This document shows positions 15,001 to 18,000 of a stretch of DNA of 64,000 nt, in pieces. Made by a program: the position numbers. How positions within the stretch are numbered: the first letter of the stretch is position 1; each line of letters starts with the position of its first letter. Source of the stretch: an uncultured Chthonomonadaceae bacterium (GTDB taxonomy: Bacteria > Armatimonadota > Chthonomonadetes > Chthonomonadales > Chthonomonadaceae). The stretch lies in NCBI GenBank assembly GCA_963817895.1, contig CAWFQB010000002.1, positions 448,001 through 512,000 of the forward strand, read 5' to 3'.

Positions 15001-18000
15001 GGTAGGTTTCGTGGCCGGGGCGGAAGTAGAACACGCGGCCCGCGCCTTCGCCCTCGCCGACGCCTTTGCCCGGCCCCGATGTAAAGCCTTCCGTTTTGCC
15101 CCGCCCGACTGTCCAGCAGATGCCGCAGGGGAAATATTCGCCGCCGGTGGGAAAGTAGGATTGAAAGACGAGGCATTGAGGCGGCGGAACGTCGAAGGGC
15201 GCGCCGTACATCTCCTCTCAGGGACAGCACAAAATCGGATACGCCTTTCGCAATCGGATGATGGGGGGCGCAAACGGTGATTTCTTCCACATCGGCGGGC
15301 GTTTCCTCGCGCCAGCCGCCCTTGAGATGGCCGGGACAGCCCAATACGGCCTGCAAGGTTTTGGAATAGTGCGCGGAGTGGAGGGCCACAAAGCCCATGC
15401 CGCGCTCATGAACGTGCCAGTACACGCGCATCATGGTATCGTCGCTGACTTCCCGGTGACGGGCATGTCCCCACCAGAACAGCACGTCCGTTTGATGCAA
15501 AACGTCGTCGCGGCAGCCCTGTTCCGGATCATCGAGATTGGCGGCAGTGGCGATGATTTTGCCGTTTCCCATCGCGTTCAAGCCACTCGCAATCGCGCCG
15601 TTGATGCTGTCGGGGTACAGCGATTTGGGCGCGTGCGTGGGCGCTTCATCCCACACCAGTACGCGAATCGGCTTTGTTGCAGTTGTATCGTCTGTCATTG
15701 GTTTCCCTCTCCTTTGCAATCAAATTGGCGTTGTTTCTGAACTGCTGCAAGGTTGCGCATAAGCAGGCGAAAACCCTGCTTTCTGCGACATGAAATGTGT
15801 AAAGAGTTGTGGCAGCTACCACAATATGACGGCCTGCAAGCGTGGTAAAATAGGATAGGAGGAAATCCATGAAACCAGAATACTATGCTGAAGATGAAGT
15901 GCAGCGGCGTGGGCGGGAACTGTATGAATGCAGTATTCGCGCTCAGGTAGAAACGGAAGCGAACATCGGCAAAATTGTTTCCATAGATATTGAAACAGGC
16001 GATTACGAGATAGATGCAGACTTGCTTGCGGCAGGGGATCGTCTGCTGGCGCGACACCCGGATGCCGCCATTTGGGGGGAACGCATCGGCTATGACGCTG
16101 TTTATGCGGTTGGCGGTGCGCGAACCCGGACAACGCTATGATGCAAGGCTACGTCGTTGGTTCGCGGGCATGTTTGCCGGTGGTGATTTCATCGCCTATT
16201 CTGTCGGATGTACGCATCGTATTCGCCATTGATACAGGTTTTGAAGGGGCTTTGACCCTGCCCCTTGCAACAATTATAGCGCTTGGCCTGCCGAAGCAAC
16301 AGGAAATATCCGCCAAATTAGCGGATGGCAGCCTGACAAAAGTAGGCGTGTATCGAGGAAGCATTTTCTGGCACGGCGTAACAGTGAACCTTGCTGTTCT
16401 TGCTATGGATAGCGACCCTCTTCTCGGAACCTCTTTGTTGGACGGCAATCTCCTGTTTATTGATTGGGCAGATCAGGGCGAAGTTCGCATTGAACAGCGT
16501 CCGTAGCGTCGAATAAGGTAAGCAACTTCCTGCCTTACTCACCGGGGCGCAGGAGTTGTTCGGCGGGTGTGGTGTCGGACGCGGCTTGGGCGGGACGCAA
16601 CAGAATATCCGGGCGCGTGGCGGCGGGTTCGCTGGCCCGTAACAGGGTTTCCGCCTGCTGAAACCGCCCCGTGTTGCTTTCAAGATACAGCAGACACTCC
16701 TGCGCGGCAAGCGCGATGCCCTCCTTCCATTTCGCGGGGTACATCTTTTCATGCAGGCGACGGACGGCGGGAATGGCAGATGCATCTCCAACCTGTTCCA
16801 ATGCCTTTAAGCAGGCGAGCGTCAATTCTTTGTCATGATTGGGATGCTTCAACGGCAGCAATAATGCGGCTTTATCCTCTTTACTCCACAGTGGCGCATG
16901 GTCAGCGCGGATTTGCGGCAACAGGCGTTTGATCGCTCCACGTAAACCTTTTACTCCTACGTGTTCTTGAGCAAACTCCAGGCGCAACATTGGCGCGATA
17001 AAACGAACATCATTCACTTCAGATAATAACTCGCTAACGCGCCTGCCTGCCAAATTGTACTTTTTGGTGTAAATACCTTGTGCCATAGAGGAGATAATTG
17101 TCGTCAGAACTATCTGTAAGAAAGACCCAACGCCCTGATTGGGCAGATGCAGTAGGGCTGCCAACGCACACCCCAACATAAAAATTGCGATGTATACGGC
17201 CCATCCTCGCCGGAAACGCTTTCGTCTATTACGGCTTTCCAGAAGGACGAGTTGCAGCAGGTCGTCGGGCGGCAGGGCGCGGGCGTCGCGCAGGGCGGCG
17301 TCACGAATGGCGGGATCGCGGCTGTTGAGTTGGTTGAGAAGTTGCTGCAAAGATGCGCCTCCTTTTGTCTTGAACCGGCATATAAAATGCCGGGTATTAG
17401 GCCTACGGCCAATTGTCCTGTAGCAGTCCCATTCTGTCATTGAACATACCATTTTGAGTACATATCGCATAGTTTTCTAGAACCTTTTGTTCACCAGACG
17501 ATTGGCCGCAGGCCTAACTACCCGGCATTTTATATGCCGGGTATCCTCAAATGCGCTACCGTCCCGCCAATCTTGCTCCCACCGTAGAACCGGGGTACGG
17601 CGTTTGGGAACCTTTGACGGCTTTCCATAAGACGCGATTCAATTCGTCCGGGTCGCAACGGTCGTAGGCGGAAAAGTCCAGTTTCGGCGCAGTTTTGGTA
17701 GAAGCGGTTTTGGCGGGCGTAGCGCGGGCGTTGAGGGCGGCAAGATCGGTACGCGGTTCCAGAACCCGGAACGGCGTCAGATCGGCGCGGTCGCTGAAAC
17801 TGCTGAATAGCGGGGTCGCGCCCGCGTCGTACTGCGTCATGGGCGGCAGGCCGAGCAGCAGTTCCATGCTGCGCAGAAAAGACGACGTGGTGTAAAACGT
17901 GTGGTCTACGGAACGCCGCTTGATGTACGGGCTGACGACAAGCCCAACGGTTCGGTGCGCGTCTACATGGTCCGGGCCGGCCTGCGCGTCGTCCTCAATC

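Follow-up and report, generated by a model that had tools for sequence, protein, structure and literature searches.

A two-gene cassette in Chthonomonadaceae pairing a retropepsin-like aspartic protease with a small protein predicted to occupy its cleft

In pepsinogen and in retroviral polyproteins, the catalytic cleft is filled by a segment that precedes the protease in the chain, and the Ascaris inhibitor PI-3 pairs a strand with the flap of its aspartic protease and places residues in the cleft. The retropepsin-like proteases of bacteria form a small and little understood group; we know of no toxin class made up of retropepsin-fold aspartic proteases. Open-access papers and preprints likewise yielded no retropepsin-like toxin class, and the open-access literature searched describes neither a protein inhibitor of bacterial retropepsin-like proteases nor a toxin-antitoxin role for them. 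According to the available parts of the sources, RimB joins RimA and RimK in acting on polyglutamylated RpsF (PMC11957791), and type III CRISPR loci of Sulfolobales carry a small retropepsin-domain protein, Asp_prot or Saci_1895 (PMC3973734).

Here we describe a gene pair from an uncultured Chthonomonadaceae bacterium, located in a window of 64,000 nt (contig CAWFQB010000002.1, positions 448,001 to 512,000, assembly GCA_963817895.1). Its second gene encodes a retropepsin-like protease and its first a small protein, hereafter the partner. In agreement with the initial annotation, we found no publication on this gene pair among open-access papers and preprints, a search limited to the articles themselves.

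Layout of the pair and its two proteins

Both open reading frames, their strand and the ATGA that they share came out exactly as first annotated (Table 1), and the overlap suggests that translation of the two genes is coupled. The pair is flanked on both sides by housekeeping genes. A sigma-70 scan returned 0 promoter-like sites. The palindrome upstream of the partner gene could be an operator, an idea that we regard as unsupported; nothing comparable and conserved precedes the other paralogs and orthologs examined, and the palindrome belongs to the window copy only.

Table 1. Features of the partner-protease pair, numbered from the first base of the window
Feature	Position	Strand	Basis or remark
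Palindrome TTGTGG-CAGCTA-CCACAA, 18 bp	15807-15824	.	45-62 nt 5' of partner ATG; arms 89% complementary
GGAGG, Shine-Dalgarno-like	15858-15862	+	From sequence; 6 nt 5' of partner ATG
Partner gene	15869-16141	+	90 aa; ORF position rechecked
Partner domain H10-27, E36-40, E46-49, H52-62, E68-72, with C-terminal tail	15869-16141	+	Predicted structure
Partner tail, codons 76-90, DAVYAVGGARTRTTL	16094-16138	+	Alignment conservation and complex model
ATGA junction, protease start on partner stop	16138-16141	+	From sequence; 7/11 genome pairs alike
Retropepsin-like clan AA aspartic protease gene	16138-16506	+	122 aa; ORF position rechecked
Catalytic Asp32-Thr33-Gly34 codons (GATACAGGT)	16231-16239	+	Sequence and alignments
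Flap hairpin, residues 53-78 (E53-60, E66-78)	16294-16371	+	Predicted structure
Leu95-Leu96-Gly97, clan AA hydrophobic-hydrophobic-Gly motif	16420-16428	+	No variation at L95 or G97 across 50 homologs

The protease has a single-lobe retropepsin fold with a flap hairpin (model pLDDT 95.1). Its best match in the PDB by Foldseek is XMRV protease (3sm1_A, E 4.8e-4, TM 0.62/0.66), followed by Rickettsia APRc (5c9f_A, E 7.3e-4, TMq 0.67), with the proteases of EIAV and HIV-1 also among the top matches. As initially scored, it reaches 54.6 bits against the TIGR03698 profile, below the cut-off of 57.35, which two paralogous proteases pass (73.4 and 67.2 bits), and it is best regarded as closely related to that subfamily. 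All 9 aligned paralogs keep D32 and T33, with D-T-A in one of them, and D32, T33 and G34 are all invariant across 50 protease homologs. PADLOC gave weak rows only (E 0.0068 and 0.03) and no significant family.

The partner belongs to a large, unnamed family: 4375 cluster representatives match it at E<=1e-3, and 36 of the 149 deep-search matches that we recounted contain 2 or 3 partner domains. The initial annotation had found it without a match in Pfam, NCBIfam or solved structures, and this holds. It matches 0 families in Pfam and NCBIfam, known DNA-binding families included, and nothing in PADLOC or PHROGs; Foldseek found no PDB match to its model at E<=0.001; and neither the partner, a profile of its family nor the protease has a significant match among the sequences of solved structures (best E 0.15). 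The nearest ESM Atlas clusters are all annotated as hypothetical protein and are mainly cyanobacterial. Two candidate relatives were set aside: the ParD antitoxin 7ycv, whose match (E 0.61) we treat as chance, and FdhD, the best hit of a wide VIA fold search (Z 4.0, rmsd 6.2), which has an unrelated fold at noise level.

Modelled alone, the partner has a pLDDT of 81.5 and ends in a disordered C-terminal tail, in which residues 77-83 and 86-90 fall below 50; the low-confidence tail agrees with the earlier description, and the figures differ (pLDDT 77.5 and residues 78-90 before). Within the close subfamily, conservation reaches 90% or more at Y79, A80, G82, G83 and R87, and across the whole family the tail runs from aromatic or hydrophobic to small residues. 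The YAxGG tail is not universal, since three paired partners end in short tails (RIGDDVLGRI, RIGSESVFSLH and RVGSDQFLQKGRR). Where the GG is present it is followed by 7 variable residues, and in some pairs the GG is missing or the tail short.

A predicted complex and readings of the partner

We modelled two proteases with one partner, using our own alignments and three controls. The rerun closely followed the earlier one, with an ipSAE of 0.81 and 0.01 for the best control (0.80 and 0.09 before), at least 97% of contacts common to runs, a partner pLDDT of at least 86 and pLDDT of 92-93 for both protease copies. Of 157 solved complexes 116 had reached the pass mark, as had 2 of 215 mismatched pairs; the score is the model's own confidence, obtained with alignments and a 2+1 set-up that differ from those of the calibration set. 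In the predicted geometry, partner strand 67-71 lies on the protease flap, where the main contact is with residues 54-62, including 54-58, and partner residues 76-86 touch the flap and Asp32 of both protease copies, which reproduces the docking on Asp32-Thr-Gly and the flaps that had been reported before. The model predicts that the partner binds the protease through these contacts.

The reading that we prefer, and to which we give an even chance, is that of a self-contained cassette in which the partner blocks a cytoplasmic retropepsin-like protease, either as a pro-segment acting in trans or as an antitoxin. The second gene would encode the protease, a homodimer, and the first its dedicated protein inhibitor, the two being co-produced through translational coupling at the ATGA overlap. 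Strand 67-71 of the putative inhibitor would join onto the flap, and its disordered tail (residues 76-86, ..YAxGG..) would fill the substrate cleft over both Asp32, much as a trans-acting pro-segment or an antitoxin of type II might. Loss of the partner, or failure to make it, is the putative trigger that would free the protease to cut cellular or invader proteins, its putative targets, and through this presumed toxicity the cassette would serve for addiction or for defence.

The placement of the tail in the protease cleft would suit a substrate equally well. The partner might be a dedicated substrate or precursor with ..Y-A-x-G-G.. as its cleavage site, and the protease a maturation enzyme and no toxin, whose processing matures or activates the partner, so that, for instance, a Gly-Gly end is exposed or a short peptide set free. 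Consistent with this are the model, in which the tail occupies the substrate cleft over both Asp32, and the family-wide succession of aromatic or hydrophobic and then small residues, which resembles retropepsin cleavage sites. The single natural partner-partner-protease fusion (P0146) also places a partner tail directly N-terminal to the protease start, like a self-processing junction. Conversely, the 7 variable residues after the GG and the tails that are short or lack GG in some pairs argue against this reading, as does the partner fold, which has no significant ubiquitin-like match (Foldseek returned weak PB1-domain rows only, E ~3, TM 0.27). With the comparative evidence below, we consider this substrate reading improbable.

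A non-inhibitory subunit, such as an assembly chaperone, an activator or a substrate adaptor of a housekeeping or regulatory protease whose copies represent diversified specificities, would also be expected to be translated together with its enzyme, as the ATGA overlap suggests. The RimB paper (PMC11957791) notes that the few bacterial peptidases of family A2 characterized so far involve additional protein factors, and matches with 2 or 3 partner domains (36/149) could fit a two-fold dimer. However, an activator is not expected to lay its tail over both catalytic aspartates, as the partner does in the model, and the distribution of the pair (below) leads us to regard a role of this kind as quite unlikely.

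Linkage, decay and spread of the pair

Partner and protease are tightly linked in this genome. Purpose-built HMMs of both families, run on the six-frame ORFs of the 7.48-Mb genome, identified 11 proteases and 25 partner ORFs, comprising the 21 full-length partners counted initially and 4 additional fragments. As had been claimed, each of the 11 proteases has a partner immediately upstream, and 2 of the proteases are truncated, so that the 11 pairs hold 9 intact proteases. The truncated ones form a tandem pair on contig C5, one 81 aa long and the other stopping at residue 103 at a premature TAA. Seven of the 11 junctions are ATGA overlaps and one is a 1-nt overlap (TAATG), in line with the first count, and the remaining gaps are 4, 15 and 15 nt; the 56-nt overlap also listed at first arises only with the longest possible ORF. 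Ten further intact partners stand alone, and PIN genes adjoin lone partners at 3 loci. Two more C-terminal protease remnants also stand alone (C6:10900-11046 and C1:1239649-1239738), and a candidate twelfth protease at C3:158996 is a different protein of 282 aa. In total, an intact protease is missing for 12 of 21 intact partners and a partner for 0 of 9 intact proteases.

The same asymmetry is found in other genomes. Among relatives, the partner is directly upstream of 28/28 best-scoring protease loci and, in two near-complete genomes, next to the protease at all of the other 24 loci (23 with the partner upstream in the same orientation, 1 divergent), so that all 52 protease-anchored loci examined outside this genome have a neighbouring partner. 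In five cyanobacterial genomes the partner is upstream at 24 of 30 loci anchored on TIGR03698, and the other 6 belong to a longer protease clade (143-202 aa). Among 80 related partner loci, 58 of which had been credited with a protease ORF, our recount gave an intact protease at 53, a broken one at 9, none at 15 and a contig end cutting the locus at 3. An intact partner thus stands without an intact protease at 24 of the 77 judgeable loci (15 absent, 9 broken). The tail motif is kept by 14/15 partners with an absent protease, 8/9 with a broken one and 52/53 paired partners, counts that are biased because the loci were found by a peptide pattern overlapping the start of the motif. A seeming fusion of partner and VapB (L012) is a frameshifted partner remnant running into an antitoxin-like gene ahead of a PIN gene.

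Partners outlive proteases, and with one counter-example the reverse was not seen, a decay pattern like that of toxin-antitoxin cassettes. The counter-example is the ortholog L024/L125, in which partner codon 62 has changed from CGA to TGA, a premature stop, beside an intact protease ORF. Were the protease strictly toxic, such a stop should do harm, barring cross-protection by paralogous partners, some other defect that disables the protease, or an erroneous base call. That partners without an intact protease, 12/21 here and 24/77 elsewhere, keep their ORF and tail would be odd for a precursor, and no protease was found without a partner, though a harmless maturation enzyme could stand alone. 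The persistence of partners once the protease is gone is likewise at odds with a non-inhibitory subunit.

Both genes are under purifying selection, as dN/dS is 0.10-0.17 over the two (against ortholog L024, 0.17 for the partner and 0.11 for the protease). Identity matrices of the 11 paralogous pairs are correlated (Mantel r 0.76, reached by 0 of 5000 permutations). Partner and protease are real, co-evolving genes; their strict co-occurrence and co-divergence would also be expected of an enzyme and its subunit.

The pair is patchily distributed and apparently self-contained. Across 41 genomes (this one and 40 relatives) copy number ranges from 0 to 24, with a protease in 19, and homology to a genome of the same genus spans exactly the two genes and leaves the flanks unmatched. 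Partner homologs occur on 10 cyanobacterial plasmids, and the pair is present in 5 of the 6 plasmid regions inspected. In one of these regions the pair is flanked by pglZ and pglX, genes of a BREX-1 locus; in others it adjoins ParDE, RelE/ParE, PIN and Uma2 genes. A housekeeping role sits poorly with 0-24 copies, plasmid and BREX sites and homology limited to two genes, and no conjugation or export genes are linked to the pair among the neighbours examined, which also counts against processing of the partner as a substrate.

These neighbourhoods raise the possibility that the cassette is an anti-phage abortive-infection sensor, with the partner as bait and the protease released when a phage factor removes or cuts it. 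This would be a special case of the inhibitor cassette, in which defence instead of addiction is selected. The copy within the BREX-1 locus fits, as do restriction-modification, NACHT and Schlafen-like genes among the neighbours in other genomes, the small retropepsin-domain proteins encoded with Sulfolobales type III CRISPR loci (in the available part of PMC3973734) and the weak PADLOC row PEPT_D (E 0.03). Toxin-antitoxin, restriction/defence or mobile-element families account for 23 of 150 immediate neighbours elsewhere, a raw count taken without a control set. Conversely, PADLOC assigns no significant family, 50,697 phage records contain no partner homolog, and most copies lie among housekeeping genes, most neighbouring genes being housekeeping or of unknown type. 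We rate a dedicated anti-phage role as unlikely.

The initial annotation had proposed that the partner is either an inhibitor, like an antitoxin, or a substrate. The pairing, layout and predicted docking behind that proposal stand, and comparison across genomes tips the balance towards the inhibitor: it is the partners that outlive the proteases, same-genus homology is limited to the two genes, relatives carry anything from 0 to 24 copies, and copies lie on plasmids and beside BREX and toxin-antitoxin genes.

Comparison with known systems

Among described families, DUF5678 (PF18929) offers an analogue of the partner. Four cyanobacterial loci (L171, L173, L174, L179) have it as the gene immediately before a small D-S-G retropepsin-like one, and at three (L172, L177, L178) it is fused to a D-S-G retropepsin-like domain. 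Like the partner, it is encoded upstream of, or fused to, a retropepsin-like protease, and by eye its elements follow the same order of helix, two short strands, helix, strand and tail. Homology between the two is not supported: the DUF5678 profile matches 0/27 partners in alignment A2 and not the window partner, its sole match being P0146 (20.4 bits, below the cut-off of 23.2), and hhalign of the partner against a 7-sequence DUF5678 alignment gave a probability of 0.2%. The earlier view of the partner as familyless is correct by score and is qualified by this analogous module, which occurs both fused and split. Together with the P0146 fusion, the split and fused DUF5678 modules suggest a pro-segment reading, which the initial annotation had left out of account.

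A further, more tentative proposal, about which we are rather doubtful, is that the pair stands for a large new class of toxin-antitoxin or abortive-infection cassettes, with a free-standing retropepsin-like toxin and a trans-acting pro-segment antitoxin that threads its tail through the cleft. If so, prokaryotes would possess a mobile module that regulates itself and is built on a single-lobe aspartic protease, some variants being fused in the manner of a polyprotein, and the system would bear on the origin of retroelement proteases and of their self-processing control. The preferred inhibitor reading, if right, would bring a protease of a new fold into the toxin types, a new means of restraining an aspartic protease and a simple two-protein system for studying regulation of the retropepsin dimer. 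The partner family is large and has neither a name, a Pfam family nor a fold match, and direct tests are feasible in the model cyanobacterium Nostoc sp. PCC 7120, which carries one copy on plasmid alpha.

Compared with protease pro-segments, the pair shares natural fusions (P0146 here, and the DUF5678 fusions at L172, L177 and L178) and differs in that the segment is a separate folded 90-aa protein with its own gene, which persists in genomes without the protease. The flap-strand and cleft mode of Ascaris PI-3 resembles the modelled partner interface; PI-3 and yeast IA3 nonetheless have no known relation to it in sequence, target two-lobed pepsins and are not known to form an operon with their target. 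Among bacterial enzymes, Rickettsia APRc, Pseudomonas RimB and the secreted enzymes of P. aeruginosa share the single-lobe clan AA fold with D-T/S-G. In contrast to the putatively cytoplasmic protease here, APRc is embedded in the membrane and P. aeruginosa secretes its enzymes, according to the available parts of their descriptions, and none of the three is described with this partner family. Sulfolobales Asp_prot and PADLOC PEPT_D represent a retropepsin domain of ~100 aa that stands on its own near defence genes, as far as the source is available; the profile match is weak (E 0.03, 12.7 bits), and the available part of that source reports no partner of this kind (PMC3973734).

In organization there is a close parallel with type II toxin-antitoxin systems such as VapBC and ParDE. 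The pair differs from them in that the putative toxin is a retropepsin-fold aspartic protease and the partner has no recognizable DNA-binding domain or conserved operator. It resembles them in having two small co-oriented genes with the protective one first and ATGA overlaps, a partner predicted to consist of a folded domain and a tail ordered only on its target, many diverged paralogs per genome with a patchy multi-copy distribution, copies on plasmids and in toxin-antitoxin or defence islands, and more lone partners, the 'antitoxins', than lone proteases, the 'toxins'.

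Gene pair, folds and predicted complex

Two overlapping open reading frames, encoding a small partner and a retropepsin-like protease, confirm the two-gene cassette reported by the initial annotation.

Genes of the cassette, in window coordinates
Feature	Position	Strand	Description
Partner gene	15869-16141	+	ORF, 90 aa; ribosome-binding site GGAGG
Protease gene	16138-16506	+	ORF, 122 aa; ATGA overlap with partner gene

The protease scores 54.6 bits against TIGR03698 ("clan AA aspartic protease"), under the cut-off of 57.35, and is a weak match to Pfam Asp_protease_2. Its model is a single-lobe retropepsin (pLDDT 95.1) carrying the conserved motifs Asp32-Thr33-Gly34 and Leu95-Leu96-Gly97, and the closest PDB structures are XMRV protease (E 4.8e-4, TM 0.62/0.66), Rickettsia APRc, EIAV protease and HIV-1 protease. 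The partner has no family in Pfam, NCBIfam, PADLOC or PHROGs, and its sequence gave zero matches to solved structures. Its model (pLDDT 81.5) comprises a helix (10-27), two strands (36-40 and 46-49), a second helix (52-62), a strand (68-72) and a C-terminal tail with pLDDT <50; it resembles no known fold, with no Foldseek match at E<=0.001 and a top VIA Z of 4.0.

We modeled two proteases with one partner from our own alignments, alongside three controls. The predicted complex reached ipSAE 0.81 (runs 0.82, 0.81 and 0.81) vs. 0.01 for the best control, with at least 97% of contacts in common between runs and partner pLDDT of at least 86; the pass mark is met by 116/157 solved complexes and 2/215 mismatched pairs, in a calibration that used another job design and other alignments. 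The most confident modeled contacts join protease flap residues 54-58 to partner residues 67-71, and tail residues 76-86 are predicted to contact each of the two protease copies at Asp32 and at residues 34-35. The earlier model, in which the partner sits on the protease with its tail at Asp32, is thus reproduced. A tail modeled in the cleft cannot by itself separate an inhibitor from a substrate.

Copies in this genome and in relatives

The cassette is real and widespread. Searching every six-frame ORF of the 7.48-Mb assembly with our own profiles recovered 11 proteases and 25 partner ORFs, with a partner directly 5′ of the protease in 11/11 cases. The previously noted count and pairing therefore stand, except that two of the proteases are truncated: these form a tandem at C5:50447-51544, one being 81 aa long and the other stopped by a premature TAA after residue 103, and both of their partners are intact. 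Junctions are ATGA overlaps in seven pairs, TAATG in one, and gaps of 4, 15 and 15 nt in the others. The remaining partners include 10 lone, apparently intact copies, several preceded by good ribosome-binding sites and −10 boxes, and four fragmentary or frameshifted ones; short C-terminal protease remnants occur at two other places. Paralogs share 13-59% identity and are old, and partner and protease identities co-vary across them (Mantel r 0.76; 0/5000 permutations as high). Pairs here are mostly single and lie between housekeeping genes. One (G000 C4:623898-630571) lies within a pyrimidine-synthesis cluster, on the same strand, flanked by phosphoribosyltransferase, aspartate carbamoyltransferase and dihydroorotase-like amidohydrolase genes.

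The partner has 171 close relatives, and its profile gave 4375 matches at E<=1e-3 (2082 at E<=1e-10) among 1.84 billion representatives. Those partner relatives that have a name are all "hypothetical protein", and protease relatives are called "clan AA aspartic protease". At 80 partner-anchored loci elsewhere, chiefly in Chthonomonadaceae, other Armatimonadota, Nostocales and other cyanobacteria, an intact protease lies directly 3′ in 53, a broken one in 9, none in 15 and a contig end in 3. Anchoring on the protease, we found a partner upstream at the 28/28 best loci in relatives' genomes and adjacent at all 24 other protease loci in two near-complete genomes; the only divergently oriented partner is at G001 C2:4413673-4415635, where it lies ~230 nt ahead of an intact protease gene. 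Among TIGR03698-type loci of five cyanobacterial genomes, 24/30 have a partner; the other six are a longer clade (143-202 aa) standing alone. At five cyanobacterial loci (L157, L158, L165, L167, L169), a separate clade of retropepsin-like proteins, 143-166 aa long and extended by ~30 aa at the N-terminus, lacks the partner family.

Copy number ranges from 0 to 24 among 41 genomes (this one and 40 relatives). The cassette has 80% identity to one of two same-genus genomes exactly over 15869-16507, and matches to the window's flanking genes fall at unrelated places in the two. Both genes are under purifying selection (dN/dS 0.10-0.17). Hairpin repeats at 14855-14940, 14195-14312 and 17370-17550 represent three long intergenic REP-like families; blastn hits to each, on both strands, number 31-43 here and are much more numerous in the two same-genus genomes. 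None of these repeats in the window directly bounds the cassette.

Decay, neighborhoods and the role of the partner

The likeliest working, to which we give an even chance, is that the protease is kept shut by a dedicated partner protein. We lean toward this inhibitor or antitoxin role because decay is one-sided, the tail is kept after protease loss, and neighborhoods fit a selfish or defense cassette. The partner outlasts the protease: 12/21 intact partners here and 24/77 elsewhere lack an intact protease, and no intact protease without an adjacent partner was found among 52 loci outside this genome and the 9 intact here. The tail motif is kept by 14/15 partners whose protease is absent, 8/9 whose protease is broken and 52/53 paired partners, counts partly biased by the pattern used to find partner-anchored loci.

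Neighborhoods are consistent with a selfish or defense element. Partner homologs are present on 10 cyanobacterial plasmids, with the pair in 5/6 plasmid regions inspected. A Nostoc sp. MS1 plasmid (L184, 3001-3638) has it on the opposite strand within an annotated BREX-1 system, with pglZ on one side and pglX on the other; other plasmid pairs adjoin ParDE, RelE/ParE, PIN and Uma2 genes. In this genome, PIN genes adjoin lone partners at three loci. Among 150 immediate neighbors elsewhere, counted without a control set, 23 belong to families of toxin-antitoxin systems, restriction/defense or mobile elements, 64 fall in no family, and the remainder are housekeeping. An IS630 transposase lies near the BREX-1 pair. 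Plasmid alpha of the model organism Nostoc sp. PCC 7120 carries a copy (L183, 3001-3650) whose genes overlap by 4 nt and are annotated as coding for a hypothetical protein and a "clan AA aspartic protease"; the nuclease-inhibitor pair NucA/NuiA and a transposase are encoded nearby.

Evidence against an inhibitor or antitoxin comes from the ortholog of the window pair (L024, L125), in which partner codon 62 has changed from CGA to an in-frame TGA (L024 3184-3186, identical in L125) beside an intact protease ORF, the rest of the partner gene and the protease being conserved; either the gene was inactivated recently or the base was miscalled. Some paired partners also have short tails without YAxGG, and we found neither a DNA-binding domain in the partner nor an operator common to the copies.

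Fused forms hint that the partner could be a pro-segment, acting as inhibitor and substrate at once. P0146, a single protein of 313 aa, has the order partner-partner-protease, and 36/149 recounted deep-search hits contain 2 or 3 partner domains. In a separate cyanobacterial module, DUF5678 and a D-S-G retropepsin-like domain are fused (L172, L177, L178) or split, with DUF5678 directly upstream of a small D-S-G protein (L171, L173, L174, L179); in L171 and L173 a stop codon plus 54 nt of gap fall exactly where fused forms read through. Profile and alignment comparison did not support DUF5678 as a homolog of the partner. The DUF5678 profile also matches the mid-part of cyanobacterial response-regulator-like proteins of 353-367 aa (L180, L181, L182), so this small domain is wider than protease modules.

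Comparison with known systems

As far as open-access main text shows, the cassette is undescribed: we found there neither a publication on the partner-protease pair nor a toxin class made of an aspartic protease. Known bacterial retropepsin-like proteases include APRc, RimB and secreted P. aeruginosa enzymes, whose settings differ from that of the cassette. In Sulfolobales, type III CRISPR loci have small proteins with a retropepsin domain beside them (PMC3973734). Type II toxin-antitoxin modules have the same layout and behavior as the cassette.
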